Below are positions 23,813 to 42,588 of a stretch of DNA of 64,000 nucleotides, one piece after another. The notes under the pieces were generated by a model. It was not told the origin of the DNA and made no database searches. It worked only from the letters and a program-made list of their open reading frames with translations. Made by a program: the position numbers and the translations under genes. Position 1 is the stretch's first letter, and the number at the start of each line of letters is the position of its first letter. Source of the stretch: a virus. Taxonomy: Duplodnaviria; Caudoviricetes. The stretch spans positions 32,001 to 96,000 of the IMG/VR virus record IMGVR_UViG_3300035208_001807; one strand, given 5' to 3'.

Positions 23813-23841
23813 TTTACTTTTACTATAAACCATGCTATGAT
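23813..23841 (+). promoter_or_regulatory. Sigma70-like promoter
   Basis: TTTACT-N17-TATGAT. Confidence 0.65.
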
Positions 23842-23858
23842 ATCTATAGAGGTATCAT

Positions 23859-24320
23859 ATGCGAATACCAAATACTACTTGTTTAGGCTGTAGTAAATCA
23901 CTCTATCAGAGACCAAGCCAGAAAGCCTTAGGAAGGAATGTCTATTGTGATTTATGCTTTCCTACTATAGGAATGTCTCTACGCGGTGAGAGAGCTGCAG
24001 TTGCTCGTAACAGAATCTACGCAACTGCTTATATAGATAGATGGAAAGCTGGTAAAGAATCTGGGATGCGAGGTCAGACCGCAATTTCAGCGTATATTCG
24101 TAAGTATCTATTTGCTAAGTATGATAATAAGTGTTGTCGATGTAGCTGGAAAGAGAAGAATAAGACAACTGGTAAAATTCCTTTAGAGGTCAATCATAAA
24201 GATGGCAACCATAGGAATAACAAAGAAGGCAACCTTGAACTCTTGTGTCCTAATTGCCATAGTTTAACTAGTAGTTTTAGATCTCTTAATAAGGGATCTG
24301 GAAGGCCAAGAAAGTTCTAA
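23859..24320 (+). CDS. HNH endonuclease
   Basis: CCRC ... EVNHKDGNHRNN ... NLELLCPNCH. Confidence 0.9.
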   Translation: MRIPNTTCLGCSKSLYQRPSQKALGRNVYCDLCFPTIGMSLRGERAAVARNRIYATAYIDRWKAGKESGMRGQTAISAYIRKYLFAKYDNKCCRCSWKEKNKTTGKIPLEVNHKDGNHRNNKEGNLELLCPNCHSLTSSFRSLNKGSGRPRKF

Positions 24321-24323
24321 CTC

Positions 24324-24413
24324 GGAAGGGTGGCAGAGTGGCCTAATGCACCTGACTTGAAATCAGGAGGGCCCGTAAGGGCTCCGTGGGTTCAAATCCC
24401 ACTCCTTCCTCCA
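24324..24413 (+). tRNA. tRNA-Ser (TGA), replacement copy
   Basis: CCTGA-CT-TGA-AA-TCAGG, long variable arm, CCA. Confidence 0.9.
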
Positions 24414-24465
<52 letters not shown>

Positions 24466-28579: not shown

Positions 28580-29222
28580 GTCATTACTGGTTGCGCTTCT
28601 GATGCTGATGGCAAACGTTTCTTTTGGACTGGGTCTCTCAGCCCGCGTGGATACCTCCACAAAGTACATGTACCGCGGTATCCAGATCGAGAACAACGCG
28701 GTTCTGCAGCCCAGCCTTTCTGTCTTGGCTGGACCTGTGGTCGTGGGTGGCTTTGCCAACTACAACTTGGACCTGAACCAGTACGACGAAGTTGATGCCT
28801 TTGGCTCACTTTCGTTCGGGCTGGGTCGCTTTGCTGCTACGGTCGGCGCCCAGGGTTACTTCCTTGATGGCATCGATGACATGGCTGACGTTAACATGTC
28901 ACTCATTCATACTGATGTTAAGGGCTTTACCCTTACCGGTGCCTATAACTTCCTTAATTGGAAGGGTCTTTACGCTGAGCTGAACTATGGGTACCTCGTG
29001 CCTATGCATTCATTCTCTCTGGCTCCTACCATGGGAGTTGGCTACAACAAGGACTACATGCGTGTGGGCAGTGGCTTGTCCCACGTCTATCTGTCTATTC
29101 CCCTGACTTACCAATGGGGTAAGAAAGCCCGCCTTATCTTGACAGGATTCCACCAAGAACACTTGTCAGATGACTTCAAATCGGTTACGATGGGCCAGTT
29201 CAGCTTCGTCCGGGACATCTAA
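28569..29222 (+). CDS. Putative outer-membrane beta-barrel protein
   Basis: Signal peptide, KYMYRG...LQP, alternating aromatic strands. Confidence 0.65.
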   Translation: MRSKSLLVALLMLMANVSFGLGLSARVDTSTKYMYRGIQIENNAVLQPSLSVLAGPVVVGGFANYNLDLNQYDEVDAFGSLSFGLGRFAATVGAQGYFLDGIDDMADVNMSLIHTDVKGFTLTGAYNFLNWKGLYAELNYGYLVPMHSFSLAPTMGVGYNKDYMRVGSGLSHVYLSIPLTYQWGKKARLILTGFHQEHLSDDFKSVTMGQFSFVRDI

Positions 29223-29223
29223 C

Positions 29224-30021
29224 ATGGCCAAGCAGGAAACTGACAACTATCTTATCGAGTTCAAGGATGTGTGTCAGAGCTATCCCGATAAGAAGGACGT
29301 AATCAAGGGCTTTGACCTGATCGTAGACCAGGAGCCTGGTACCGATAAGGTTATTGGTATCCTTGGTCCTTCTGGTTGTGGGAAGTCGACCATCCTGCGC
29401 TATCTCTCTGCCCTACAAAAGCCCACCTCTGGTGGTGTTTTCATCAAGGGCGAGCCGATTACGGACAACACTGTTGTAGGGATGGTGTTTCAACAGTATT
29501 CATCTTTACCATGGTATACTGTGTTGGAAAATGTTGCGCTTGGTCTTGAGCTTCGCGGAGTTCCTCTCAAGGAACGTACCGAGAAGGCCATGGAAATGAT
29601 CAAGCTGGTGGGCCTTGAAGGACATGAGAAGAAGCGCGCACTGTCACCTGCGCTCTCAGGTGGGCAGTTGCAGCGCGTTGCGATTGGCCGGAGTCTTCTA
29701 GCCAACTCACAAATTCTCTTGATGGATGAGCCTTTTGGTGCTCTTGATGTGAGTACCAGGCTTAGTATGCAGGAACTGCTGCGTAGCGTTCTTAGCATGC
29801 CAGATGACATGACAGTAATGTTTGTTACTCATGACATTCCGGAAGCTGTCTATCTCTCGGATGAGATCCAGATTATGGGAGCTAATCCTGGGCGTATAGT
29901 TGATACTATCGAACTCAACTGGCCTAAGGATAGAGAGCCCTCAATCAAGCGAGAGCCGAAGTTCGTAAAGATGGTCTACGATATCGAAGATCGTATGGCC
30001 AAGTTGAAGAAGCAGAAGTAG
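29224..30021 (+). CDS. ABC ATPase (SsuB/TauB-like)
   Basis: GPSGCGKST, LSGGQ, LLMDEPFGALD and VTHD motifs. Confidence 0.93.
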   Translation: MAKQETDNYLIEFKDVCQSYPDKKDVIKGFDLIVDQEPGTDKVIGILGPSGCGKSTILRYLSALQKPTSGGVFIKGEPITDNTVVGMVFQQYSSLPWYTVLENVALGLELRGVPLKERTEKAMEMIKLVGLEGHEKKRALSPALSGGQLQRVAIGRSLLANSQILLMDEPFGALDVSTRLSMQELLRSVLSMPDDMTVMFVTHDIPEAVYLSDEIQIMGANPGRIVDTIELNWPKDREPSIKREPKFVKMVYDIEDRMAKLKKQK

Positions 30022-30104
30022 AGATACTCAAGTAGCAACGAGGACGGGCTGTAAACCCGTTGCCCGCGAGGGCTTCGTAGGTGCAAGTCCTACTCTCTAC
30101 ACCA
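30018..30104 (+). tRNA. tRNA-Tyr (GTA)
   Basis: ACGGG-CT-GTA-AA-CCCGT, long variable arm, ACCA; overlaps the ATPase stop codon. Confidence 0.88.
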
Positions 30105-30115
30105 TTGAGGGACTT

Positions 30116-30451
30116 ATGCCTCCATCCAAACGTGTTCCTAACCAGGTTCCTGAAGGTACAAAGATTGTACCGTCAGAGCAGTGGTATAAGGACAGACACC
30201 TATACTTTACGACTATGCCTCGTGAGATGTGCATTGGGGTCGTGAAGGCTTGTGATTATGGCAAGCTCCTAGTAGTATGGCCCGAAGGTTGCTCTGGTGG
30301 CAATCCAGGCGGAGAGGCAGCTAATAAACTGCCTCGTAGTGAGTATGCAAGGGCTTGGTGGGTGAATGCCCCCGATATGCTTTTAGAAGGCTATGCCTTC
30401 GAGCCTGCTCCTGAACGTGCTCGTCCTAAGCTGGACCAACTAGTAGATTAG
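30116..30451 (+). CDS. Hypothetical protein (MPP start, LxxLVD end)
   Basis: Ends RARPKLDQLVD. Confidence 0.65.
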   Translation: MPPSKRVPNQVPEGTKIVPSEQWYKDRHLYFTTMPREMCIGVVKACDYGKLLVVWPEGCSGGNPGGEAANKLPRSEYARAWWVNAPDMLLEGYAFEPAPERARPKLDQLVD

Positions 30452-30524
30452 TCATGGTGGCCGAGTGGTTAGGTTGCGGCCTGCAAAGCCGCCTACGAGA
30501 GTCCGATTCTCTCCCATGACTCCA
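30451..30524 (+). tRNA. tRNA-Cys (GCA)
   Basis: GCGGC-CT-GCA-AA-GCCGC, U73, CCA. Confidence 0.9.
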
Positions 30525-30783
30525 TTTGAGGTCTTCATGAACCCCATTATCCAGAACTGGACTATCTCTCCCCATAAGTCAAAAGATGGACGTTGGTACT
30601 TCAGACTTCATGGTAACATCCATGGGCATCCTGACTACCCCCGGATCACTGATGGTGAGTACTGCCATACCTCCGAGATTCTCTCTATTGATTTTAGGGA
30701 TAATCTTGTAGTTACTAGGAGTCGCACCTATCAGCTTGGGAAGCCAGAACCCGAGAGCACTCTTAATAAGGCTATGGTTCTCA

Positions 30784-31566
30784 ATGAACTTACTAAGGCT
30801 TAAGAAGTTTGCCAATGGACGGGTCTATGCCCTCCAGACTCAAGATGGCTATCCTCTTGAGACGACGGACACATTCCTTCCCTCTTATACTAAAGAGGCA
30901 ACTGGGCGCCGGCAAAATACCCTATCTAATACTGATTTAGGTAGCAGGCATAACCGGTGGATGGTTGGTGTGTCAGTAATGTCAGGCTGTCCTGTGGGAT
31001 GTAAGTTCTGTGCGACTGGTCAGTTGTCTAGATGGCGTAAGCTGACCGCTGATGAGATCGTGGACCAGGTCAAGTTCATCGTTGGATCTAATCCCGACTA
31101 TAACCCAAATGAGGCCTATGAGTTCAAGATCAACTATACCCGCATGGGTGAGCCTTTTCTGAACTTAGAGGCCGTAAAAGAGGCCATAGGACGCATTTCT
31201 GAGCTATTCCCGAAGGCCCATCACTACGTCTCAACTATCGGAGTCAAAGGCTCGACTTTTGACTGGATTCATGATAGGATAACCCTACAGTTGAGTTTGC
31301 ACAGTTTAGATGAAACTCGACGCCATGCCTTGATCCCATATCCTACAATGTCTATTGAGGAGTTGGGGCAAGTTCGTACGAAGAGTGCCCTGAAGACGAC
31401 GGTGAATTTGACCTTAGTTGACAAGGCCGATTTTGACATACAGGCTCTTAAGAAGTACTTCGATCCTATGTACTTCTTCATCAAGCTGAGCCCTATCAAT
31501 CCTAATGCAACGTCTGAGAAGAATGGACTAGGCAAAGGGATTGTGCAGCAGATCAATCTGGTATAA
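30784..31566 (+). CDS. RlmN/Cfr-like radical SAM protein lacking the C-terminal catalytic-Cys segment
   Basis: SGCPVGCKFCATG (CxxxCxxC), LTADEIVDQV, RMGEPFLN, VSTIG and LSLH motifs. Confidence 0.85.
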   Translation: MNLLRLKKFANGRVYALQTQDGYPLETTDTFLPSYTKEATGRRQNTLSNTDLGSRHNRWMVGVSVMSGCPVGCKFCATGQLSRWRKLTADEIVDQVKFIVGSNPDYNPNEAYEFKINYTRMGEPFLNLEAVKEAIGRISELFPKAHHYVSTIGVKGSTFDWIHDRITLQLSLHSLDETRRHALIPYPTMSIEELGQVRTKSALKTTVNLTLVDKADFDIQALKKYFDPMYFFIKLSPINPNATSEKNGLGKGIVQQINLV

Positions 31567-31576
31567 GGAGTCTCCC

Positions 31577-31699
31577 ATGGAAGATATCAAGAATCAACTC
31601 GAAGCGGCCGGCTATGACTTTGCCGTCGCGATCGCGACCCAAGCGGAGATTAATAACCAGGCAGCCTGCGGCCAGCTTGCCATCGTAACCTCCGAATAA
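31577..31699 (+). CDS. 40-aa peptide equivalent to the RlmN C-terminus (AACGQL)
   Basis: MEDIKNQLEAAGYDFAVAIATQAEINNQAACGQLAIVTSE; own AAGGAG RBS; not in ORF track. Confidence 0.8.
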   Translation: MEDIKNQLEAAGYDFAVAIATQAEINNQAACGQLAIVTSE

Positions 31700-31718
31700 C
31701 AAACCCTTTTACCCTTGC

Positions 31719-31794
31719 GGGGACATAGCTTAGCGGCCAAAGCGTCCGGCTGTCTACCGGAAGACCTGGGGTTCAAATCCCCATGTCCTCGCCA
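31719..31794 (+). tRNA. tRNA-Asp (GTC)
   Basis: TCCGG-CT-GTC-TA-CCGGA, G73, CCA. Confidence 0.9.
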
Positions 31795-31807
31795 TATTTT
31801 CTCATAC

Positions 31808-31844
31808 ACGGCAGTGGTCCAACGGTTGGGCAGCGGCCTCCAAA
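31808..31844 (+). pseudogene. 5' half of disrupted tRNA-Trp (retains CT-CCA-AA)
   Basis: ACGGCAG pairs with CTGCCGT-GCCA at 32341-32351. Confidence 0.85.
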
Positions 31845-31895
31845 AGAATTAGTATCCAAACTCTAATTGGTGTTATAATACTCATGGAGGGTATT

Positions 31896-32243
31896 ATGGC
31901 AACCAAAGAATGGATTCAAACTCATCAGAAAGAGATGCGTGCTTATCGTAGAAAGCACTATCGAGCTAATAGAGAACAATATTATGCTCGTAATAGAAAA
32001 TCTTGGGCAGCTAAGCAAGCTTTCTTAGATAAATTAAGAGATGTTCCATGCCCTATATGCAAAGGAAGATTTGCTCCTTGCAGTATGGAGTTTGATCATC
32101 TAAGAGACAAAAAGACTTGTGTTAGCACACTTGCCAAGAATTCTTGGTCTAAGTTAAAGGCTGAGATAGCTAAATGTGAAGTTATCTGTGCTAATTGTCA
32201 TCGAGTTAGAACTCTTAATAGGAAGAAAGACAAAACACGTTAA
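31896..32243 (+). CDS. HNH endonuclease
   Basis: CPIC...EFDH...CEVICANCH; GGAGG RBS; stop codon lies within the 5' end of the replacement tRNA. Confidence 0.88.
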   Translation: MATKEWIQTHQKEMRAYRRKHYRANREQYYARNRKSWAAKQAFLDKLRDVPCPICKGRFAPCSMEFDHLRDKKTCVSTLAKNSWSKLKAEIAKCEVICANCHRVRTLNRKKDKTR

Positions 32244-32310
32244 TGGTGTAGTGGTAGCATTGGTGACTCCAAATCTCCAGGTGGGAGTTCGATTCTCTCT
32301 TAACGTGCCA
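32237..32310 (+). tRNA. tRNA-Trp (CCA), replacement copy
   Basis: ACGTTAA/TTAACGT acceptor, GGTGA-CT-CCA-AA-TCTCC, GCCA. Confidence 0.85.
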
Positions 32311-32320
32311 AATTAAGTAG

Positions 32321-32351
32321 ACAGTGGGTTCGACTCCTACCTGCCGTGCCA
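32321..32351 (+). pseudogene. 3' half of disrupted tRNA-Trp
   Basis: GTGGG-TTCGACT-CCTAC then CTGCCGT-GCCA. Confidence 0.85.
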
Positions 32352-32370
32352 TCTACTTTAAGGAACTAGC

Positions 32371-32871
32371 ATGAAGAAGATTGCCCAGTTTGTTGATGAA
32401 GCCTCAGGGCTTATCTTTAAGACTGCGAAAGCAGCTCTTAAGTCTGAGAATAAGCACCGCTCTATCAAGAAGATCTTTTCTTGGATAGGTAACCGCGAGA
32501 AGCGGACTCGGCGCAAGGGTGAAGACGACTGTAAATTCGCCAATGGTGGATGGTCTATCCAATGGTCGGAGGCTGATTACGAACGCCTCATCAATTGCAT
32601 TTGGCAGGCTGTTCATGATCATGAGAGGTGGATCTATAACCAGTATAAGGGAGGCCTTACTCTAGGCCAGATAAGGGGCCAAAGTGCACTAGGTCACTAC
32701 CTCAGTGATAACGATAGCTCTATTTATCACTGGTATACCTTGCAGATGGAAATCTGTCCTAAGTGTTTCCGGCAGTATGGACAGCCCTACTATGCAATCA
32801 ATTGTCATTGTGATGGCACTTCGGGCGGAAGTGGCCGCGCCCATACAATTCCCACTCGGGAATTAGACTAG
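32371..32871 (+). CDS. Hypothetical protein
   Basis: AAGGA RBS; 166-aa ORF. Confidence 0.65.
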   Translation: MKKIAQFVDEASGLIFKTAKAALKSENKHRSIKKIFSWIGNREKRTRRKGEDDCKFANGGWSIQWSEADYERLINCIWQAVHDHERWIYNQYKGGLTLGQIRGQSALGHYLSDNDSSIYHWYTLQMEICPKCFRQYGQPYYAINCHCDGTSGGSGRAHTIPTRELD

Positions 32872-32918
32872 TAATACTAGACAGTGTGTAAGAAATACTA
32901 TATAGTTTTACTTACAAT

Positions 32919-32992
32919 GCTTCTATAGCTCAACGGCAGAGCGCCTGGTTGAAGCCCAGGAGATGGTGGTTCGAAACCATCTGGGAGCACCA
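32919..32992 (+). tRNA. tRNA-Phe (GAA)
   Basis: CCTGG-TT-GAA-GC-CCAGG, ACCA. Confidence 0.9.
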
Positions 32993-32994
32993 AT

Positions 32995-33072
32995 GGGGGA
33001 TGGGACTGCACAGGGTGGTCGCCTGCTTTGCAAGCAGGATTCAGGTGGGAGCGTTACCCACATCCTCCACCA
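32995..33072 (+). tRNA. tRNA-Ala (TGC) with atypical T-loop
   Basis: G3:U70, CCTGC-TT-TGC-AA-GCAGG, T-loop AGCGTTA. Confidence 0.8.
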
Positions 33073-33160
33073 TATGAAAGCGGACCTAGCTAGGATGCCG
33101 GCCCCATTTAGGGGGTGCGGGCTCCCCTAGATAACCACCCGCTCACTTGAGGATGTGTAC

Positions 33161-33185
33161 TCCGAGGTAGCTTGAAGGTCAAGCA
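33161..33185 (+). pseudogene. 5' part of disrupted tRNA-Asn
   Basis: TCCGAGG-TA-GCTT-GAAGGTC-AAGC-A; pairs with TCTCGGA-GCCA at 33720-33730. Confidence 0.8.
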
Positions 33186-33565
33186 ATCTTGTCATGGATT
33201 TCAGCATGGCAGTTAGAGCAGACAAGGATACACTTGTCCAACTCTTTTACTGTCCTTTTCCATGAGACATTAGTTGATCCGATACCAAAGTCTTTTTGGC
33301 TAGGATCCTTGTGGTGGAATTGTAAAGCTCTGGGTGACTTCTTGTAGTTACAAATACTACAAGCTCCTCCGAGATATTCAATAGCTCTCAGCTTTCTGCG
33401 CTGACGCCACTCGATAACAGAGTCGACTGGAGATTTATTAGTAGAAAGTCTACTAATACGTAGTTTTTCTCGGTACTCAGATTTACAGCTAGATGAGCAG
33501 TATGGACTTGACTTAGTGATAAGTCTTCCGCAACTCTTGCAGTGGTTAGTTAGCTTGTGTGTCAT
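33179..33565 (-). CDS. HNH endonuclease, antisense to the tRNAs
   Basis: CSIC...LQFHHKDP...CILVCSNCH. Confidence 0.88.
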   Translation of the reverse strand: MTHKLTNHCKSCGRLITKSSPYCSSSCKSEYREKLRISRLSTNKSPVDSVIEWRQRRKLRAIEYLGGACSICNYKKSPRALQFHHKDPSQKDFGIGSTNVSWKRTVKELDKCILVCSNCHAEIHDKIA

Positions 33566-33687
33566 GTATGTTCCTGGGTAGGAAAATTGGTAACCCCAAC
33601 CGGCTGTTAACCGGTAGAGCGTAAGCTCACTGTTGGTTCGAGTCCAACCTCAGGAGCCATATTCATTGTAACATGCTTAACCGAGAA
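33186..33687. mobile_element. Cassette of antisense HNH and replacement tRNA-Asn inserted in tRNA-Asn
   Basis: Lies between the two tRNA-Asn parts. Confidence 0.78.
33572..33659 (+). tRNA. tRNA-Asn (GTT), replacement copy with long variable arm
   Basis: TCCTGGG/CTCAGGA, ACCGG-CT-GTT-AA-CCGGT, GCCA. Confidence 0.85.
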
Positions 33688-33693
33688 TGTTAA
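33665..33693 (-). promoter_or_regulatory. Sigma70-like promoter for the antisense HNH
   Basis: Minus strand TTAACA-N17-TACAAT; the -35 is the old anticodon loop TGTTAA. Confidence 0.65.
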
Positions 33694-33730
33694 GGAGAAG
33701 TTTCTGGTTCGATTCCAGATCTCGGAGCCA
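33688..33730 (+). pseudogene. 3' part of disrupted tRNA-Asn (retains T-GTT-AA)
   Basis: TGTTAA-GGAG..TCTGG-TTCGATT-CCAGA-TCTCGGA-GCCA. Confidence 0.8.
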
Positions 33731-33895
33731 TTGAGAATATGATGCATAACCGTTTCCGTAAGAACTTTGATCGTTGTGAGGATTTCATTCCTAAGAAGGG
33801 GACGAATCCTAACAAGTTACTTACTGCTTGTAAGCGATACTGGAACCGGTGGCGGAGACGCCAACAGAAGAAGGCTAAGAACGAGGAGTTCTAGT

Positions 33896-33929
33896 TCCGG
33901 GATCGTCTAGCGGTAGGACATCGGCCTTT
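33896..33929 (+). pseudogene. 5' half of disrupted tRNA-Gln
   Basis: TCCGGGA-TC-GTCTAGCGGTAGGAC-A-TCGGC-CT-TT; pairs with TCCCGGA-TCCA at 34602-34612. Confidence 0.85.
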
Positions 33930-34574
33930 TCGGTTGACGTGCGTCACTTACATTGCTAAGATATTAGCAGGTGGTCCAAAGGTAAGACAGTAGGTTTTGA
34001 TCCTACCAATGCAGGTTCGAGTCCTGCCCTGCTAACCACCTTAGGTGGCTTAGTATGACAACTAATTGGAGAAACAGACCAAGGGCCAAGAGAAGTGTTG
34101 TTTGGACAATTCCACGTGCTGAGTTTGCTGAGCTTTGTCGCACCTCAACTTCTATAGGCCAGATTCTAAAGAAGTTTGGTCTTGTTAATAAAGGTGGTAA
34201 TAAAACCACGGTAGAGCGCCGAGCTAAAGAAGATGGAGTTAGTCTTTCGCATATTGCGCGCGGCTTGGCTTCAAACTTTGGAAGGAAGTTTGGTCCTGCA
34301 TATAATAGATTACCTCTAAGTGAGGTCTTTTGTGTAGGGAGTAGGGCTAGCCGAAAAGCTGTTAAGAGTAGAGTTCTAGGTCTTGGACTCATTCCGAATA
34401 GGTGTGTCCTTTGTGGCTGTCCTCCACTCTGGCATGATAAGTTACTCATTCTTGTCTTAGACCATATTAATGGTATCCCAAATGATAACCGTATAGAGAA
34501 TCTGAGATTAGTTTGTCCAAACTGTAACAGTCAGACTTCCACATTTACGGGACGTAATAACAGGAAGAGAGTTT
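33930..34574 (+). mobile_element. Cassette of promoter, replacement tRNA-Gln and HNH inserted in tRNA-Gln
   Basis: TTGACG-N17-TAAGAT at 33934-33962; tRNA; HNH. Confidence 0.8.
33965..34038 (+). tRNA. tRNA-Gln (TTG), replacement copy
   Basis: U1:A72, GTAGG-TT-TTG-AT-CCTAC, ACCA. Confidence 0.9.
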
Positions 34575-34576
34575 AG
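34055..34576 (+). CDS. HNH endonuclease
   Basis: CVLC...LDHINGIPNDNRIENLRLVCPNCNS. Confidence 0.9.
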   Translation: MTTNWRNRPRAKRSVVWTIPRAEFAELCRTSTSIGQILKKFGLVNKGGNKTTVERRAKEDGVSLSHIARGLASNFGRKFGPAYNRLPLSEVFCVGSRASRKAVKSRVLGLGLIPNRCVLCGCPPLWHDKLLILVLDHINGIPNDNRIENLRLVCPNCNSQTSTFTGRNNRKRV

Positions 34577-34612
34577 CCGCGAAGCGGGGTTCGAGTCCCT
34601 GTCCCGGATCCA
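34575..34612 (+). pseudogene. 3' half of disrupted tRNA-Gln
   Basis: AGCCGC-GAAG-CGGGG-TTCGAGT-CCCTG-TCCCGGA-TCCA. Confidence 0.85.
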
Positions 34613-35021
34613 ACGAGGATAGAATGTTCAACCCAGGCGACATCGTGATGTCTAAAGATGGAGAGGATGGTCCGTTTGTTGTCCTTAAGGACGATGGGGT
34701 CAACTTCTCTACTTGTCACATCGGTAAGCCAAGTGTTGGAGTTGTATCCAAACAATCCCTATTTGTCCCGATTAAGCGACAAGGACAATATGGAGGACAC
34801 TGGAAAACGAACGCCTTTGACAGAATTGGGGCTATCTATCGCTGGGCAGAGCCTACTGCTTATACTCGCTTTAAGCAGAACCATAAACTTGTACTATCCG
34901 ATGTTGAGCCAGGGGGCCCAACACGAGAAGAGATTCTTAAGCGTATTCAGTCCGGGCATCGTGTCCGGAAGAAGAAGATAGCTAAGAGGAAATCCCGACT
35001 GGCGTACATTACGGAGTAGTT

Positions 35022-35387
35022 ATGGCCTTACGTAGATTCGAATGTGTTGAGGGTACCTCAAACAAGTTCTGGGAGATCGATGATGAGCCCCGGCCGGGAC
35101 GTGGGTATCCAATCTCTTATGGACGCATAGGGGTCACTGCTAATCCCTATTATAAGATAATGAGTGGTTCAGAGTTCCGGAAGATGGTTGCTTCCAAGCT
35201 TGCGAAGGGGTATCGCGAGGTGGTTCCTTTACCCCATGGCGGCACTGGACATGAGCCGCGGCCTTTGCTAAGACGCCTCTCTGGCCCTCAACAGAGGAAC
35301 TTAAAGCGTAAAGCAGTAAGGATTGAGAAAGCTGTTCGTAAGAGAGCAATGCGTACAACGCCTCATCTCTCTTCGTTGGTAGATTGA
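35022..35387 (+). CDS. WGR-domain protein with LxxLVD C-terminus
   Basis: SNKFWEI, YGRIG and KLAKGYRE motifs; ends HLSSLVD. Confidence 0.75.
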   Translation: MALRRFECVEGTSNKFWEIDDEPRPGRGYPISYGRIGVTANPYYKIMSGSEFRKMVASKLAKGYREVVPLPHGGTGHEPRPLLRRLSGPQQRNLKRKAVRIEKAVRKRAMRTTPHLSSLVD

Positions 35388-35388
35388 C

Positions 35389-35464
35389 GCGCTTCTAGCT
35401 CAACTGGTAGAGCATCACCTTGATAAGGTGGGGGTTTCCGGTTCAAATCCGGGGAAGCGCACCA
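35389..35464 (+). tRNA. tRNA-Ile (GAT)
   Basis: TCACC-TT-GAT-AA-GGTGG, ACCA. Confidence 0.9.
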
Positions 35465-35469
35465 TAAAC

Positions 35470-35543
35470 TCAGGGATCGTCTAATGGTAGGACGGCACCC
35501 TCTGAAGGTGCGTATAGTGGTTCGAATCCATTTCCCTGAACCA
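35470..35543 (+). tRNA. tRNA-Gln (CTG)
   Basis: GCACC-CT-CTG-AA-GGTGC, U1:A72. Confidence 0.9.
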
Positions 35544-35549
35544 TTTAAG

Positions 35550-35712
35550 TTAGTACTGATAAATCCGTAGGGAGCCTCTTCGGGGTTTAAAACCTTATGA
35601 GACCGAATAGAAACGGAGTATTCTAAGTCGGCCATGTTAGGCCCACGTTAAAAGCATGCAGCGTACTGTCCGACAATGCATGTGTAGAGCCCTACGGTGT
35701 TATGAGTACTAA
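35550..35712 (+). ncRNA. Candidate structured ncRNA with a long closing stem
   Basis: TTAGTACT...CCGTAGGG pairs with CCCTACGG...AGTACTAA; no plus-strand ORF. Confidence 0.4.
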
Positions 35713-35815
35713 AAGAGTTTTGATGGGGCCTGGAGCTTAGTGGCTCCCATTGCATTAGAGGTCATAATCAGATGCAAGAAAATGACCTGGGCCTATGAGG
35801 ACTTAAGGAGAATAT

Positions 35816-36346
35816 ATGTCAGCGGATCATAAGACATGTTGGATCGAATGTGAGTGCGGGGATTATGATTGTGCCTCTCGTATTGAGGTATGGCACGATG
35901 AGGCTGATAACACTCATGAGTTTTACTTCTCCTATCAACCAGAACAGTATCCTAAGTATGAGACAGATAGAAATTATCTTAGCTATATTAATGGGCGCGA
36001 TAATTGGCACTGGTTTCAATTTAAGTGTTGGTTGAGGGGAGTCAAGTTATATTTCCGCAATATATGGTATGCAATTACTGGTAAGCCCCAGTGGTGGTAT
36101 GCTAACATGTCTTGGGGTCCAGAGCAAGCTAAGAAGTTATCTGATTTTATTCGTGAGAATTTACCTGATGAACCTAAGGTTCTTGATCGTAGATTAGATG
36201 GTACTGCATTTGATCCTAGAGTAAAAGGTACTATAGGAGATGTGCAATTAGCATGTCCTAAATGCGGGAATAATAAGTGGACCTATTCAGATGGTCCAAT
36301 CATCTGTTCTAGGTGTTATACTGAAAGACCGGAAGAGAAGAAGTAA
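35816..36346 (+). CDS. Hypothetical protein with C-terminal Zn ribbon
   Basis: AAGGAG RBS; CPKC...CSRC. Confidence 0.65.
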   Translation: MSADHKTCWIECECGDYDCASRIEVWHDEADNTHEFYFSYQPEQYPKYETDRNYLSYINGRDNWHWFQFKCWLRGVKLYFRNIWYAITGKPQWWYANMSWGPEQAKKLSDFIRENLPDEPKVLDRRLDGTAFDPRVKGTIGDVQLACPKCGNNKWTYSDGPIICSRCYTERPEEKK

Positions 36347-36486
36347 TGGATAACTATCCTTTTACTTATGAAAAGTGTGTTTCCTGGTATCAGGTAAAGC
36401 GTAAGCCTACCTCGAAGTGTTCTGTTTGCCTGAAGATTTGGCGAGCAACAGAAGCTGCCCGAAAATGGCTCAAGTCTATGTGACTT

Positions 36487-36562
36487 GGGTCTGTAGCTTA
36501 GCAGCTAAAGCAACCGCCCTTTAAGCGGTATATCGTGGGTGCGAGTCCCATCAGGCCCACCA
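36487..36562 (+). tRNA. tRNA-Lys (TTT)
   Basis: ACCGC-CC-TTT-AA-GCGGT (C33), ACCA. Confidence 0.85.
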
Positions 36563-36580
36563 ATTTGAGGTAGCTAACGT

Positions 36581-36657
36581 GCCCTGGTAGCTCAGCCTGG
36601 TAGAGCTTCCGCCTTGTAAGCGGAGGGTCGTCGGTTCGAATCCGACCTGGGGCTCCA
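36581..36657 (+). tRNA. tRNA-Thr (TGT)
   Basis: TCCGC-CT-TGT-AA-GCGGA. Confidence 0.92.
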
Positions 36658-36659
36658 AT

Positions 36660-36734
36660 GCTACGATGGTCCAATGGTCACGACATCGGAATTTCAATCC
36701 GATAATCCGGGTTCAATTCCCGGTCGCAGTGCCA
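36660..36734 (+). tRNA. tRNA-Glu (TTC)
   Basis: TCGGA-AT-TTC-AA-TCCGA, GCCA. Confidence 0.85.
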
Positions 36735-36909
36735 TTGATGTAGACGCGGCCCGACGGTGCAAGCGGAAGCTATTCGGGCTTGACGGATAAGCTAGAGATT
36801 CATGCAAAGTATGGTTATTATGTCATACAGCGGCACTGACGTGGTGCTAAAGGGCATAGCTCACGTACTCTAAGTGATATCTGGTTATCATGTGACTTGG
36901 AAGGCTTGA

Positions 36910-36984
36910 GCTCGCTTAGGCCAGCGGTAGACCGCCTGTTTTACATACAGGATGTCGGGGGTTCGATTCCCTCAGCGAGCACCA
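36910..36984 (+). tRNA. tRNA-Val (TAC)
   Basis: CCTGT-TT-TAC-AT-ACAGG, ACCA. Confidence 0.9.
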
Positions 36985-37008
36985 TTTGCGAACGATCCTG
37001 GAGGATCT

Positions 37009-37389
37009 ATGTTTCTTAAGATACTAGTCGCGATACTTACTATAGCTGTTATAGTTATAGTAATCGGCGCAGCCCTGCTCTTCAATGCTTACATTGCTTC
37101 TAGCATCTACCAGATGCTTTTGCAGCCCATTATCAAGGTTGCTCTACCCCTCTACTTCTTCATGGGTTTATGCCTGGTGTGGGGTGTCATGATTGACTCA
37201 GGACTTAGGACTAATCTCCTGACTGATATTCACAAACGTCTTTGCAATCGTGACGACCTTGGTATAGCAACCAACGGGAATGAAGTCCATAAGACTTTCA
37301 TGAATAAGGCTTTCTTCAAGGATATATTCATCATTCCGCTCACAGCTTGGGGAGTAGCTTTTATCATTCATTGGGTTGTGGGGTGCTAG
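37009..37389 (+). CDS. Membrane protein
   Basis: GGAGG RBS before ATG 37009; hydrophobic helices. Confidence 0.65.
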   Translation: MFLKILVAILTIAVIVIVIGAALLFNAYIASSIYQMLLQPIIKVALPLYFFMGLCLVWGVMIDSGLRTNLLTDIHKRLCNRDDLGIATNGNEVHKTFMNKAFFKDIFIIPLTAWGVAFIIHWVVGC

Positions 37390-37822
37390 GATGACTAAGC
37401 TTCATGATGCAATCTCTGAGTATCAGTGTCCCGGTTGTGTCTGCGGCGGTGCCCCATCGCAGAATTGTGAAGCTCTCAAATTGGACAAGGATGGTTGTTC
37501 TAAGCACGTTGTTGGAACATTCATTATGGGATTAGGCCACATTGTCCTCGGCTTACCAAAGGGTTTTGCTAGGGTTAGCGAAACGCAGGGTAAGATTCGT
37601 ATCTTCCCTACTAAGGAAGATTACGCTTCACATGAGTACGATCACTTCAATGTGCCTGTATGGAAGTATAAGAATGAAAAGGGGCATGTTCTAGTTCGGG
37701 TATATATGCCGCGAATCGATACGAGTAGCATCCATATCCACATGGATGGCAGCTACTTTCATGAGATCCGAGCTACTTATACAGTTACAGACGAGATGCT
37801 GAAGGGAATGACTTCCTAGAAT

Positions 37823-37896
37823 GGGTTCCTAGTTCAGTGGTAGAACAGCAGACTCTTAATCTGCCTATCTGGGTCCGATTCCCAGGGAGCCCACCA
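37823..37896 (+). tRNA. tRNA-Lys (CTT)
   Basis: GCAGA-CT-CTT-AA-TCTGC. Confidence 0.9.
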
Positions 37897-37899
37897 ATT

Positions 37900-37973
37900 G
37901 CGGGATTGGTGTAATGGTAGCAAGTCACGTTGCCAACGTGAAGGCGCGGGTCCGATTCCCGCATCCCGCTCCA
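37900..37973 (+). tRNA. tRNA-Gly (GCC)
   Basis: TCACG-TT-GCC-AA-CGTGA, U73. Confidence 0.92.
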
Positions 37974-37974
37974 T

Positions 37975-38046
37975 GGCTCGGGGTCCGGTGACCAACTTGG
38001 TTTCATAAGCCGGGTTTGCGTGGATCATCACCACGACGAGCTACCA
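37975..38046 (+). tRNA. Atypical tRNA (CAT)
   Basis: TT-CAT-AA loop, short D-arm, non-canonical T-loop ATCATCA, ACCA. Confidence 0.55.
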
Positions 38047-38060
38047 TTTAAGGAGCTAAA

Positions 38061-38327
38061 ATGAAGAAGGTTCTGTTCATGTTCATGCTATTCTTTGTTA
38101 TCCATCTTTCGGGTGGCAAAGATGTTGAGAGATACTACTTCCCTAACGCTGAATACAAGTGGCGCATTTGGGGAGGCGACGGCTCTGCCTATGTCGATGT
38201 AACAAGGAAGAAGAGTGGTTGTTGTGGCGACTCTGTATTTGTTGGATCTCTTCTGGCCGGATGGTACATCGTCGACTTTGGCGATGGGACTAAGCTCCCT
38301 AGTTCCTATGCGCCTATGACACCATAA
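38061..38327 (+). CDS. 88-aa protein with hydrophobic N-terminus
   Basis: AAGGAG RBS; resembles 48148-48414. Confidence 0.65.
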   Translation: MKKVLFMFMLFFVIHLSGGKDVERYYFPNAEYKWRIWGGDGSAYVDVTRKKSGCCGDSVFVGSLLAGWYIVDFGDGTKLPSSYAPMTP

Positions 38328-38433
38328 AGATCTTGACAAATCCATATAGGTAAAAAGTACATATGTGGATTATGGCCGATTCTAGATTGCCATGATTTTC
38401 CTGGAATCTGTGCAGCTGCAGTTAGTTTTAGAC

Positions 38434-38508
38434 GCGCCGATGGTCTAATGGAAGGGCCCTGGGTTACGGTCCCAGTGTATGTGGGTTCGAGTCCTACTCG
38501 GCGTACCA
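38434..38508 (+). tRNA. tRNA-Arg (ACG)
   Basis: CTGGG-TT-ACG-GT-CCCAG, ACCA. Confidence 0.88.
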
Positions 38509-38859
38509 TTTAGGGAGTTTGCAATGCCGCTATTCGATTTCATCAAGAAGAAGTTAGTGGAGAGGGAAATGCGTCTGTCTGATCCTAATCTGCTTCCTAA
38601 GGCTAAGCCTTCGAAGCCGAAGAAGGCTAAAGAGCCTAAGAAGTCTGCTCCTCGTCGTGAAGAGACTAATTGGCTTGAGCGGCGCCATCTCCATGTGGAA
38701 ACTACTGAAACCTCTTGGGCCTTCAATCCTAATACTCAGTTTGAGATTGAGACTAATGAGCGTTGTGCAGATTATGTATTTACTACGCCAGCTGGTAAGT
38801 TCGAAGCACGTATTCCCTATCGTACGGTTATCGAAATACATATAGAGGACTAATTTTTG

Positions 38860-38898
38860 GCCCTCTTAGCTCAGTGGTTAGAGCAGGAAACTCATAAT
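38860..38898 (+). pseudogene. 5' half of disrupted tRNA(CAT) (Met or Ile2)
   Basis: GCCCTCT-TA-GCTCAGTGGTTAGAGC..CT-CAT-AA; pairs with AGAGGGC-ACCA at 39461-39471. Confidence 0.85.
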
Positions 38899-38945
38899 GT
38901 TTACTTAGTAGTATGAGTGTGTTATAATAGCTTTAGGAGGCTATT

Positions 38946-39392
38946 ATGAACACACACTTATGTCCACGATGTAACAAGAGGGAAGAGTTTGGTATTAATA
39001 GACTAAAGAAAGATGGGATGCAGACTTCTTGTAAGAAGTGTCGCCAGCGATACCAGCGGGACTGGTATCAGAAGCATAAAAGGTTGCACAAAGCTAGAGC
39101 ATGGAAGTCAAATGAGTTAGTAAGAGTGCGCAATAGGAAGTTACGTGACTCTTACTTGCGATCTCATCCCTGTATTGATTGTGGTGAGAAAGATATAGAG
39201 GTTTTAACTTTCGATCATGTAAGAGGAGTAAAGCGCCTAGATATATGCAGTATGATAAGGCGTGCATTTACATGGAATACTATACTTAAAGAGATAGGAT
39301 TATGTGAAGTCAGGTGTGCTAACTGTCATACAAAAGTAACTAGGAAGAGACGTGAGGACATCAAGCTTAACGGTCGAGCAGCGTCCTCATAA
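38946..39392 (+). CDS. HNH endonuclease
   Basis: CIDC...LTFDH...CEVRCANCH; AGGAGG RBS; stop codon lies in the replacement tRNA anticodon loop. Confidence 0.88.
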   Translation: MNTHLCPRCNKREEFGINRLKKDGMQTSCKKCRQRYQRDWYQKHKRLHKARAWKSNELVRVRNRKLRDSYLRSHPCIDCGEKDIEVLTFDHVRGVKRLDICSMIRRAFTWNTILKEIGLCEVRCANCHTKVTRKRREDIKLNGRAASS

Positions 39393-39430
39393 GACGTTGG
39401 AACTGGGTTCAACTCCCAGGATGTCCACCA
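39356..39430 (+). tRNA. tRNA(CAT) (Met or Ile2), replacement copy
   Basis: GGACATC/GATGTCC, GCGTC-CT-CAT-AA-GACGT, ACCA. Confidence 0.88.
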
Positions 39431-39435
39431 TTAAT

Positions 39436-39471
39436 GCCTTGTCGAAGGTTCGAATCCTTCAGAGGGCACCA
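39436..39471 (+). pseudogene. 3' half of disrupted tRNA(CAT)
   Basis: GAAGG-TTCGAAT-CCTTC-AGAGGGC-ACCA. Confidence 0.85.
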
Positions 39472-39475
39472 TTAT

Positions 39476-39569
39476 CCTACTGGGTGGGTCGGTATCCTCG
39501 GGAGATTTATAACCTCCAGTTGCCCTAGATTGGGGCCGTAACCTGGGTCAGCACCAGGCAGTAGGACCA
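39476..39569 (+). tRNA. Atypical tRNA-Ile (TAT) with long variable arm
   Basis: CCTACTG/CAGTAGG acceptor, GGAGA-TT-TAT-AA-CCTCC, T-loop GTCAGCA. Confidence 0.65.
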
Positions 39570-39582
39570 TTAAGGAACTATC

Positions 39583-40125
39583 ATGAAGAAGACATTGTAC
39601 AAGACAAAGTTCTTATCTCTTATCTCCGAGAAGGGATGGGTTTGGGCGGAGCGTACTGGGCGAGATTATATTGACCACAGGCTAGATGTCTCAGCTATCT
39701 TGGCCTATACAGAAGATGACAAAGTTCTTCTTGTTGAGCAGTATCGCATACCTGTTGGCGCGAATGTCATCGAACTACCCGCTGGTTTGATTGATCCCGG
39801 TGAGCGTGCTTCCCAAGCAGCCATGCGTGAGTTGCTCGAAGAGACTGGCTATACCGCAGAGTGGAACTCTCGATTCCCTCAGCTTCTAGCTAAGGTTCCT
39901 TCTTCGGCTGGCTTGACTTCTGAGTGTACCTATGTGTATATTATGCCTAAGGTATCTAAGAAGCGTGGGTGGAAGCCTAATCCGAAGGAGCCGTTGAAGG
40001 TCCATAAGGTTGATATTTATGGGCTAGCTAAGTGGATTGCCAAGAAGAAGAATGAGGGGTGCTACATCGATCCTCGTGTTTATGTGGCCGTGGCAACAGG
40101 TTGGAACGGTTTTACGCCCAGGTAG
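39583..40125 (+). CDS. NUDIX hydrolase (ADP-ribose pyrophosphatase-like)
   Basis: LVEQYR.P..ELPAGLIDPGE...AAMRELLEETGY Nudix box. Confidence 0.9.
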   Translation: MKKTLYKTKFLSLISEKGWVWAERTGRDYIDHRLDVSAILAYTEDDKVLLVEQYRIPVGANVIELPAGLIDPGERASQAAMRELLEETGYTAEWNSRFPQLLAKVPSSAGLTSECTYVYIMPKVSKKRGWKPNPKEPLKVHKVDIYGLAKWIAKKKNEGCYIDPRVYVAVATGWNGFTPR

Positions 40126-40133
40126 ACCAATTT

Positions 40134-40209
40134 GTACCGGTAGCCCAACGGCAGAGGCATCTGGTTTAAGCCCAGACAAGTGTGGGTTCGAATCCCTCTC
40201 GGTACGCCA
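40134..40209 (+). tRNA. tRNA-Leu (TAA) with short variable loop
   Basis: TCTGG-TT-TAA-GC-CCAGA; G73. Confidence 0.8.
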
Positions 40210-40214
40210 TATAT

Positions 40215-40303
40215 GGGCCGTAGTTCTAAGGGCAGAACAACCAGCGATGGCAGCATGCCTAGACCTAGGGAGATGGGAGGTTCAAGTCCTCCCCGGTCCA
40301 CCA
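40215..40303 (+). tRNA. tRNA-like gene with aberrant anticodon arm
   Basis: Normal D-arm, T-arm and CCA; no 5-bp stem with 7-nt loop. Confidence 0.5.
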
Positions 40304-40315
40304 AGTTGAGGAATT

Positions 40316-40606
40316 ATGAGTCGACAGAAACATTGGCAGCGTGAAACGTTCTATCGAGAGGTCTTTGTAAGAGACCAGTGCTGCCGTTTCTGTGGCGATA
40401 AGAAGGGTCCTTTCAATGCCCACCATATTACTAGCCGAGACTTGATGCCTAATGGTGGATATGTAAAGGAGAATGGTATCACTCTTTGTGAGCCGTGTCA
40501 TTTGATTGTTGAGAAGGCGGGGCCGGAGCAGCCTAACATCTTGTATGGCTTGATAGGCTCTAGTTACAAGAAAGCCTTAGCAGAATCAGAGAAGTTAAGT
40601 AAATAG
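40316..40606 (+). CDS. Small HNH endonuclease
   Basis: RDQCCRFC...AHHI...NGITLCEPCH. Confidence 0.85.
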   Translation: MSRQKHWQRETFYREVFVRDQCCRFCGDKKGPFNAHHITSRDLMPNGGYVKENGITLCEPCHLIVEKAGPEQPNILYGLIGSSYKKALAESEKLSK

Positions 40607-40695
40607 CCCGAGTCGACTAATCGGCAGGTCAACTAGCGTTAGACAGTTGGTCCATCGTATAGTGGATGGGGGTTCGAATCCCTCCTTGGGCACCA
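40606..40695 (+). tRNA. Leu-like tRNA with aberrant anticodon arm
   Basis: GCCCGAG/CTTGGGC, long variable arm, canonical T-arm; expanded anticodon loop. Confidence 0.5.
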
Positions 40696-40899
40696 GTTGA
40701 GGTAGGACCTAATGGCACCTAAAGTTAAGAGATCTGCTTACATCCGAATAGTATTTACCAAGAAGCTTCTTAAGGAATGTGGCCTTAAGAGTTTCGCCGA
40801 GTTCAAGCGTGCTGTTCGAAGGCGGGGCTATACTAGTATCACTGCTTTTCTTGATGATGCTATAGACGCACTAATCAAGAAGCTTGAGGCTAAGAAGCG

Positions 40900-40982
40900 C
40901 CGCCTGTAGCCGAGGGAGTTTCCTAAACTCCTATCCGTAAGTGGAGCTGAGAATAAAGGTTCGAGTCCTTTCAGGCGGACCA
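40900..40982 (+). tRNA. tRNA-Arg (CCT) with truncated D-arm and extended variable region
   Basis: CCGCCTG/CAGGCGG, GGAGT-TT-CCT-AA-ACTCC. Confidence 0.7.
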
Positions 40983-41277
40983 TTTGAGGAGCTAAGATGT
41001 ATCCGATGTTCATTCCGATCTTTCTACCAGCACCTGCTGCACCAGTAACTGCAGCATCTTCAGCTGCTGCTGTAGCTGAGGCAGCCTCTGTTAAGGCAGC
41101 CGCTGTTACTGCTGGACTGGCTGCTCTTGGTATTCTAGTAGCTGTTGGTGGTATAGTTCTCGTTGATGAAGCTATGAAGCGTCATACCCCAGAGAAGCGT
41201 GGTCTCTTTCAAGAGATTAGCGCTATCTGGAATGTAATTGGTACTGTCAGAGCTGAAGCGAAGGCTAAGAAGTAATT

Positions 41278-41364
41278 GCGAGTATGGCGAAATGGCAGAC
41301 GCAACTGGCTTAGGACCAGTCGTCCGTAAGGGCATGATGGGTTCGACTCCCTCTACTCGCACCA
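41278..41364 (+). tRNA. tRNA-Leu (TAG)
   Basis: ACTGG-CT-TAG-GA-CCAGT, long variable arm. Confidence 0.92.
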
Positions 41365-41528
41365 ATAAGGAAGTACTAAATGGATATTGTACTGATAGCT
41401 TTGCCATGGGTCATTGGTGGCATATGGGGTGTGTATTGTGCCCATAAGCGCTATGGACTTCTAGTTCTACTTGTGGGCTGTGTTGCTGGTGGTGTAGCAG
41501 TAGGACTACTTAAGATATTTATCCGTTC

Positions 41529-41602
41529 GCTCCTATAGTGTAGTGGTAGCCCGCCTCCATGGTAAGGAGGAAGCTCCAGTTCAATTCTGGGTGGGAGCTC
41601 CA
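41529..41602 (+). tRNA. tRNA-Thr (GGT)
   Basis: CCTCC-AT-GGT-AA-GGAGG. Confidence 0.88.
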
Positions 41603-41617
41603 GTCGAGGAGAAGTAG

Positions 41618-41890
41618 ATGCCGTATATCAAGCCGGACGAACGCAAGAAGTTTCAGGTGATCGAGTTCGCTGTCGCGGACCTGATTACTGAACGAACTCC
41701 TCTGACTGCAGGTGATCTTAACTATCTGCTCACCCGAATTCTACATGCTCACCTTTATGCTAAGGGTGTTAGCTATACTACAATGAATGAGATCCTTGGG
41801 GTCTTGGAGGCTGCAAAGCTGGAGTTTAATCGTAGGATTGTAGCCCCCTACGAAGATGAGAAGATCAAGCAGAATGGTGATGTTGATTAA
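41618..41890 (+). CDS. Conserved phage hypothetical protein
   Basis: MPYIK...GDLNY...KLEFNRR...PYEDEKI..NGDV. Confidence 0.7.
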   Translation: MPYIKPDERKKFQVIEFAVADLITERTPLTAGDLNYLLTRILHAHLYAKGVSYTTMNEILGVLEAAKLEFNRRIVAPYEDEKIKQNGDVD

Positions 41891-42588
41891 TCCCTTGAGG
41901 TAATAAGTAATGCCCCGCCTTCATTCCCCTCGATGGAATTCTAGTATCTCTGAAGAGTACGTTCTTCATGTTGCCTCTATTGGTGAAGAGGTTAGTGTTG
42001 TAGTTGAGATTGACTATGATACTGTGGTCGATCGAAACTATGGTGCTGACCGCGATGGCCGACGTGGTGAGCGTACGCCCTTTCTTAATGATATGGCAAT
42101 CACCAATAAGGATGAAGTAGTAGCAGAGGTAGAGACTCAGTTAGACTTTGCTCTTACTGAAGAGCAGAAGACTGATCTCTTCAATGCTATTGAGAAGCAG
42201 TTTGAAGAACACGGTGACTGGGCTTCGGAGCCTGAACCTCCAAGTGGACCAGACCGATCTGATGAAGTAGATTAAGGAGCTGTAATGATGAATGGTCTTC
42301 TGGGTTTCAACTTGCTGATCATGATGTCAACTGCTAGCCGTCAGCATGGTGGCTTTGAGTTTGCTCTCTTCCCTGAATGGAAGGGTGTGAACCAGCGTGG
42401 GCGTACAATGGATTCCCTGCGTCGGTATCCTATCTGGCATTGGCTGATCTTTGACTTCATCTTTATCTATCCCTGGGCTCCTATGTCTAACCCTCAGAAC
42501 CACATGGATGGGCTTGAGGGAATGGACGAGCAAGGCGGAGGGCTTCCTCCTATGCTGAAGGAGATGTTGCTTCGTAAGATGGCCGAGC

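Follow-up and report, generated by a model that had tools for sequence, protein, structure and literature searches.

The Asn cassette described here lies on a 149-kb contig of an uncultured virus (IMG/VR record IMGVR_UViG_3300035208_001807), whose completeness is estimated at 68%. Bases 32001–96000 of this contig were analysed; this 64-kb stretch is referred to as the window, and positions are those of the window unless the genome is named. A total of 23 tRNA genes was identified in the window by ARAGORN, all on the plus strand and interspersed with small open reading frames (ORFs), and a tRNA profile made from the window's own tRNAs detected many isolated tRNA pieces in addition. Five pairs of such pieces each flank an HNH gene together with an intact tRNA (Table 1). 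Only the Asn cassette among these five carries its HNH gene on the minus strand. It represents one tRNA-Asn gene, interrupted after the D-arm, which encloses the antisense HNH gene, a spare tRNA-Asn and a promoter-like site. We regard it as probably being a "cut and replace" homing cassette aimed at the phage tRNA-Asn gene.

In contigs of four DNA runs, the window phage occurs in two studies, one on a landfill and one on groundwater. Contigs from the two studies span the Asn cassette region with at most one difference (n = 4 DNA runs); thus, the arrangement is not an assembly artefact. Among the joints listed none bypassed the Asn cassette; many of these joints derive from tRNA genes of other organisms, so that they are uninformative on cassette-free variants.

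Table 1 Cassettes of the window and features of the Asn cassette
Feature	Position	Strand	Sequence, evidence or remark
Ser cassette	23776–24465		
Trp cassette	31808–32351		
Asn cassette	33161–33730		
Gln cassette	33896–34612		
CAT cassette	38860–39471		
Old tRNA-Asn, 5′ half	33161–33186	+	TCCGAGG, TA, D-arm GCTT-GAAGGTC-AAGC, A; final base ambiguous
HNH homing-endonuclease gene, 128 aa	33179–33565	-	ORF; phrog_2255
Shine-Dalgarno AGGA	33572–33575	-	complement of spare tRNA nt 1–4; ATG at 33565 is 6 nt on
Spare tRNA-Asn(GTT), 88 nt	33572–33659	+	ARAGORN, Rfam
Predicted extended -10 TGT-TACAAT, cassette-borne	33665–33673	-	promoter scan; TGT-TATAAT in the same place in L018
Inverted repeat CTTAAC-N7-GTTAAG	33676–33694		spans right junction, overlaps -35; read from the sequence
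Predicted -35 TTAACA (old tRNA-Asn anticodon-loop positions 33–38)	33688–33693	-	identical in L018
Old tRNA-Asn, 3′ half	33688–33730	+	TGTTAA, GGAGA, AGTT, T-arm TCTGG-TTCGATT-CCAGA, TCTCGGA, G, CCA

Components of the Asn cassette

The initial annotation had placed an HNH gene on the minus strand of this locus. Indeed, the protein matches phrog_2255 ("HNH endonuclease") with an E value of 1.3e-26, and eight more PHROG families annotated as HNH match it as well. No match to Pfam HNH was obtained for the window protein, but its homologs do carry PF01844. In an alignment of 28 homologous sequences C69, C72, H85, C116, N118, C119 and H120 are invariant (motifs CxxC, HH and CxNCH), and H84 and H124 are nearly so. 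An AlphaFold2 model with a predicted local distance difference test score (pLDDT) of 91.6 has strands at residues 81–85 and 112–116 and a helix at 117–125. Alignment and model together reveal the HNH catalytic motif and two CxxC zinc pairs in a beta-beta-alpha fold, with a zinc ribbon in the N-terminal part and the HNH domain in the C-terminal part. The best Foldseek matches in the PDB were nearly all HNH domains (Cas9 HNH, Gme HNH, T4 endonuclease VII, Cap5), although weak with E values of at least 0.04; a sequence search of the PDB gave no match.

The closest protein (P0002, 82% identity) is encoded on three Joint Genome Institute (JGI) contigs from three samples (L018–L020), of which L018 serves for comparison throughout. 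tRNA genes are present at 15 of 16 fetched viral loci with HNH homologs, and several of the homologs adjoin a tRNA-Asn together with Asn 3′ fragments that start in the anticodon loop (L008, L010, L013). A marine homolog with 48% identity (L033:1440-2075) is also antisense to its tRNA array, and its 3′ end overlaps an intact tRNA-Asn. Antisense orientation and a link to tRNA-Asn recur in this HNH subfamily.

The two outer pieces of the cassette were compared with each other and with intact genes. The acceptor strands of the old tRNA (TCCGAGG and TCTCGGA, the latter at 33718–33724) pair at seven of seven positions, including one G-U pair. When the halves were joined in 800 trial joins, ARAGORN reported a tRNA beginning at 33161 in 474 of them, and nhmmer matched 33686–33730 to positions 30–74 of the tRNA profile (E 6e-4). 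A 20-nt probe from the old D-arm retrieved intact tRNA-Asn(GTT) genes of 74 nt from six tRNA-rich metagenome loci (L022–L026, L028). All six share with the window the D-arm GCTT-GAAGGTC-AAGC (GCTTGAAGGTCAAGC), the 4-nt variable region AGTT and the T-loop TTCGATT. Measured against these intact alleles, positions 1–26 and 33–76 of the old gene are retained in the window, which places the insert at the 5′ edge of the anticodon loop. About 6 nt are absent, comprising the 5′ strand of the anticodon stem and position 32, and the same bases are absent from L018. As a consequence, the halves cannot be rejoined or spliced into a working tRNA.

The spare tRNA reached 47.1 bits in the Rfam tRNA model (cut-off 29), has its anticodon at 33606–33608 and an encoded CCA, and is the sole tRNA-Asn of the 149-kb contig. 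The unusual long variable arm that had been noticed in it before is clearly present: 16 nt at 33616–33631 (A-GAGC-GTAA-GCTC-ACT) with a stem of 4 bp, so that this tRNA does not have the class I shape with a variable region of 4–5 nt. The L018 spare tRNA likewise has a long arm (3-bp stem of other sequence, same GTAA loop), as do an older L018 allele and the tRNA-Asn of L009, which is 91 nt long.

Such a tRNA might not be an Asn tRNA in function, being charged by another synthetase via the long arm or acting as a decoy. To our knowledge only Leu, Ser, Tyr and Sec tRNAs otherwise have long variable arms, the L018 copy has a D-arm (CCCGAG...GGG) that resembles the one of bacterial tRNA-Tyr, and a single base separates GTT from GTA. 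Against this stands the lack of A73, which is used by bacterial TyrRS and LeuRS, and the fact that no other Asn decoder exists on the contig. Furthermore, all known elements of the Asn identity set, namely GUU, G73 and U1-A72 (PMC9976931), are present in the spare tRNA. A function other than that of tRNA-Asn appears unlikely to us; the spare tRNA would be charged with Asn.

The cassette in a second lineage

The genes neighbouring the cassette on L018–L020 (DNA ligase, WGR-domain protein, sigma factor) differ from those in the window. Nevertheless, the order on the tRNA strand of L018 is the same: old 5′ half, antisense HNH gene, a long-armed tRNA-Asn of 91 nt, promoter-bearing spacer, old 3′ half. 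According to this, the antisense layout is inherited and stable and does not result from a local rearrangement. The recurrence of the layout and the intact genes of the same family in six loci put the anatomy of the cassette beyond chance. The alignment of window and L018 starts at old position 1 and ends at the CCA, while the flanks are unrelated; the same element hence occurs in unrelated contexts, with homology bounded by the borders of the target.

Divergence at silent sites of the two HNH genes (pS 0.79) is saturated, while divergence at non-silent sites (pN) is 0.11, and with pN/pS of 0.14 the sequences indicate that the HNH gene is under purifying selection. The old halves, by contrast, are identical at 61 of 69 bases (23/26 in the 5′ and 38/43 in the 3′ half). 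Of the eight differences, seven are located in stems and all of these keep the pairing, whereas the remaining one falls on the ambiguous base at the junction; the loops are free of differences. Three pairs show double compensatory changes between window and L018 (4:69 G-C/U-A, 5:68 A-U/C-G, 49:65 U-A/C-G) and one a single change (50:64 C-G/U-G). Since the halves are about 90% alike with pairing kept although silent HNH sites are saturated, they appear to have diverged as working tRNAs, which argues for repeated invasion of working tRNA-Asn genes. In the simplest reading the cassette would have entered two already distinct functional tRNA-Asn alleles, or its flanks would have been renewed by repeated homing. 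An origin of the halves from two adjacent tRNA-Asn copies with an intervening deletion was ruled out, because they pair with each other and co-vary between window and L018 and hence belong to one gene. The inverted repeat at the right junction is retained in both arms in L018, with 2 of the 7 loop bases differing.

In L018 (4757-5838, minus strand) the antisense unit is nested inside a still older split tRNA-Asn. The order of the nest is a 5′ half (TCCGGGA...CCTG), a predicted promoter (TGTTATAAT), a sense HNH gene of the same PHROG family (5762-5394), the antisense unit and a 3′ half, which begins at G-CTGTTAA and has a variable region of 17 nt. The "old" allele of the antisense unit is thus itself the spare of an earlier cassette, and the nesting points to successive invasions. 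A search of the window with the tRNA profile found no older Asn remnant enclosing the unit as in L018.

These data also bear on the question of whether the cassette is an immobile relic, that is, one old insertion inherited vertically, with an HNH gene that is domesticated or decaying and halves that are junk. In favour of a relic, the searches yielded no near-identical phage with an empty site, and the cassette DNA (75% identity over the HNH coding sequence) is more diverged than its flanks. However, the HNH gene is under selection, and junk flanks, given the saturation of silent sites, would be expected to be scrambled rather than paired and well conserved. The sharp end of homology at the tRNA ends and the repeated invasions suggested by the nested L018 cassette do not fit a relic either, which we consider improbable.

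Returning to a mobile cassette, the nested alleles of L018 have variable regions of 17 nt, 4 nt and about 18 nt. A long-armed allele would have been broken by a cassette that brought a short-armed one, which in turn would have been broken by the present cassette bringing a long-armed one. This alternation led to the idea that arm length confers immunity to the nuclease. In its widest form, tRNA-Asn homing cassettes would replace one another serially, the turnover would yield new tRNA shapes, a change of arm length may provide escape, and the HNH gene would be switched on only inside a tRNA-Asn gene, as its predicted promoter depends on the target for the -35. If true, escape by arm length would account for a tRNA-Asn with an arm otherwise seen in Leu, Ser, Tyr and Sec tRNAs. 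We regard this extended scheme as rather doubtful. The Asn cassettes of L008 and L010 show no change in arm length, so that the idea of immunity by arm length does not hold generally.

Predicted expression of the HNH gene

As selection acts on the HNH gene and every neighbouring gene has the opposite orientation, a minus-strand promoter must be nearby. The initial annotation had proposed a promoter whose putative -35 was read from the old anticodon loop, and TGTTAA at 33688–33693 does give TTAACA on the minus strand. A spacer of 17 bp separates this hexamer (33693–33688) from TACAAT (33670–33665), and TGT in front of the latter makes the -10 an extended one; in all, 10 of 12 consensus positions are matched. 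The equivalent site in L018 is TTAACA-17-TATAAT, again with TGT before the -10, and the spacing is the same although 5 of the 17 spacer bases differ. Thus, two hexamers of sigma-70 type at 17 bp are retained in the relative and placed before the gene. The promoter scan listed no other minus-strand candidate between 33566 and 33900.

The motif TGTTAYAAT is found three times in the window (0.66 expected). These sites coincide with the three cassettes that have a phrog_2255 HNH gene (Trp, Asn and CAT), and each is directed at its HNH gene. Three other copies occur in the 149-kb contig, at least one of which (genome 22760, minus strand) lies directly before an ORF. In the looser form TGnTAnnAT the motif precedes the HNH gene in 7 of 7 cassettes examined. 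Only in the Asn cassettes does the -35 derive from the target; in the others it belongs to the cassette. Together with the L018 site, this cassette-bound motif supports the hybrid promoter, and the predicted site likely drives the HNH gene. Given the extended -10, the -35 may matter little. The marine L033 locus has TTGGCT-17-TACAAT with TGn directly before its HNH gene and no tRNA in between. A terminator-like hairpin on the plus strand (33221–33238) was discarded, as it is absent from the equivalent place in L018.

Beyond the borders of the window, the contig has a gene for a sigma-70-family protein, which is a candidate reader of these promoter-like sites alongside other sigma factors. Also outside the window is a phage tRNA with the amber-reading anticodon CTA (genome G000:C1:117942-118145 for the sigma-70-family protein and 121181-121254 for this tRNA).

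From the position of the hybrid promoter the HNH mRNA would start at about 33658. The leader predicted from this start (33658–33566, 93 nt) is the exact antisense of the spare tRNA, as had been stated earlier. Its folds are ordinary (z -1.5 and -0.8), and a hairpin covering the ribosome binding site (RBS) is weak.

Two further overlaps had been pointed out in the initial annotation, and both hold for the window only. The AGGA RBS is provided here by the acceptor strand of the spare tRNA, but in L018 an AGGAAG within a 20-nt spacer outside the tRNA takes its place at the same distance to the ATG, and the tRNA starts 13 nt further off. Likewise, the TGA stop in the old D-arm is real here (33181–33179, D-loop/D-stem), whereas the HNH gene of L018 stops at a TAA outside the D-arm. 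In L018 GCT-GCT-TGA follows this TAA in frame, the D-arm TGA being the next in-frame stop; the window gene has lost the TAA and reads on to the TGA. The D-stem is palindromic, so that GCT-TGA can be read on both strands, and the outer sense HNH gene of L018 stops at the sense copy. From the two sequences, the RBS-tRNA overlap and the D-arm stop look like incidental by-products of compaction in the window lineage. In the Gln cassette of the window (34574–34576) and in the Asn cassette of L010 (3298-3300) the HNH gene ends with a TAG at the junction with the old anticodon-loop remnant. Such ends within target DNA are a common feature of the HNH genes of these cassettes.

The initial annotation had also suggested that the HNH mRNA could be repressed by the mature spare tRNA-Asn through its complementarity to the leader. 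Nuclease output would then be tied to the tRNA level. The exact complementarity is in line with this, and so is the order of promoter, anti-tRNA and HNH gene, which is kept in L018 despite strong divergence of the tRNA. Nevertheless, the RBS of L018 lies outside the complementary stretch, the L033 promoter-like site is not separated from its gene by a tRNA, and the leader shows no special fold. Mature tRNAs are tightly folded, modified and bound by proteins and therefore are poor antisense partners. A simpler option is a plus-strand operon transcript, which would be complementary to the whole HNH mRNA and act by interference or by decay of double-stranded RNA. If the antisense layout limits HNH output at all, this full-length transcript is the more plausible agent, and repression by the mature tRNA is very unlikely.

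The cassette as a homing element

The features of the locus are best joined in the homing cassette named at the outset. A free-standing HNH gene would travel together with a tRNA-Asn gene of different build, which would be immune to the HNH enzyme. The enzyme would cut intact tRNA-Asn genes of the same family, and repair would copy the cassette into the break. By insertion between D-arm and anticodon loop the resident tRNA-Asn would be destroyed and at the same time a substitute supplied. In its new place the HNH gene would be transcribed from a hybrid sigma-70-type promoter, which would fire from the extended -10 of the cassette (TGTTACAAT) and the TTAACA left by the anticodon loop of the target. 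Cassette-free targets exist as uninterrupted alleles of the same family in the six metagenome loci mentioned above, none of them in an otherwise identical phage.

Several observations weigh against this interpretation. Neither the searches nor the contigs of the four DNA runs revealed an otherwise identical phage without the cassette: blastn against 50,697 phage records gave a short tRNA-Phe match only, IMG/VR contained no exact match to either old half, and searches with the proteins of two neighbouring genes and with the right-junction motif gave no match. With a D-stem of just 2 bp and a variable arm not known from tRNA-Asn, the spare tRNA could work poorly. The spare tRNA of the window agrees with that of L018 at only 60 of 88 bases, and their acceptor stems differ; from this comparison, the tRNA part is exchanged or rebuilt and the cassette not a fixed unit. 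As for the promoter, the -35 stretch is conserved anyway, so that conservation alone is no proof of its use, and the number of promoter-like sites in a 14-kb region (27 vs. 17.5 expected) is a modest excess over chance.

That the insert is spliced out at the RNA level, through a group I ribozyme or otherwise, and the old tRNA-Asn thereby restored is hardly credible: Rfam gave no group I intron match at E values up to 1 in 29000–43000, 88 of the 122 nt outside the ORF are spare tRNA and the 34 nt outside both are too few for a ribozyme core, and the missing bases of the anticodon stem and loop would not be regained in either lineage. On these grounds a group I intron was excluded.

Other parts of the window contain further tRNA-like elements. 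Directly after tRNA-Phe a GC-rich stretch (32996–33073) has a tRNA-like fold, in which ACCA comes after an acceptor stem of 7 bp (GGGGGAT/ATCCTCC) and TTTGCAA is part of a stem-loop resembling an anticodon arm; it was called neither by ARAGORN nor by Rfam, and its fold energy is ordinary (z -0.25). At 40606–40695 ARAGORN predicted a tRNA with a four-base anticodon (taga), which scored 40.6 bits in Rfam, and a second tRNA-like gene at 40900–40979 was detected by Rfam only (33.9 bits). Isolated tRNA 3′ fragments directly follow the intact tRNA-Met and tRNA-Leu genes (14755–14782 and 40276–40303, respectively) and could be what is left of additional cassettes or of gene conversions. At 23802–24440, in the Ser cassette, contigs of other organisms from the same metagenomes match both broken tRNA-Ser halves with 28–35 other bases in between. 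Thus, intact relatives of the tRNA-Ser target co-occur in the samples.

The Asn cassette relates to the known free-standing homing endonucleases of phage tRNA clusters. SegB of phage T4 is a free-standing GIY-YIG homing endonuclease encoded in the tRNA cluster, which cuts preferentially in the tRNA-Asn of phages T2L, RB1 and RB3 lacking it; its recognition site uses conserved tRNA-gene sequence, and its homing carries neighbouring tRNA genes along (PMC2330249; PMC13096335). Both systems thus have a selfish nuclease gene among phage tRNA genes and tRNA-Asn as target. However, SegB is of the GIY-YIG type, intergenic and on the sense strand, whereas the gene in the window is of the HNH type, inside the target gene and antisense. 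Retained broken halves, a spare tRNA of the same specificity and a predicted hybrid promoter, all found in the window cassette, are lacking in T4. HNH enzymes encoded between phage tRNA genes are reportedly present in the tRNA region of phage T5 as well (F-TflI, F-TflII and F-TflIV, said to have been described by Akulenko and co-workers in 2004), and we know of no split target gene with a built-in substitute in that system.

The nrdA gene of phage Aeh1 is said to be split by mobE. "Fractured genes" with split inteins are likewise genes split by a homing endonuclease gene (PMC2677866). In these cases, too, a nuclease gene resides within a useful gene and a compensating device preserves its function. 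Nevertheless, their halves work by trans-splicing or subunit assembly, while in the Asn cassette the halves are dead and the spare copy would work. Hybrid promoters are known from insertion sequences, where the mobile element contributes one hexamer and the adjacent DNA the other. The division of hexamers is similar, but insertion-sequence promoters face outward and activate neighbours, whereas the predicted promoter of the window faces inward and would drive the element's own nuclease, using a hexamer that is available in every tRNA-Asn gene.

In the literature searched no description was found of a tRNA gene being split by a nuclease gene that brings the substitute along. Selfish nuclease genes are known to enter useful genes by way of self-splicing introns, inteins or adjacency to a resistant allele; a substitute gene with the broken target left in place would be a further solution, comparable to a natural gene drive with a built-in rescue copy. 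To this the locus contributes a backwards version stable in two lineages, a predicted promoter of which one half is supplied by the target, sequence evidence for repeated invasion, and a nested older cassette in L018. The long-armed tRNA-Asn would be a simple test case for the tolerance of AsnRS/AspRS towards an extra arm. Cassettes of this kind may help to explain the fast turnover of phage tRNA arrays, their odd tRNA shapes and their tRNA fragments.

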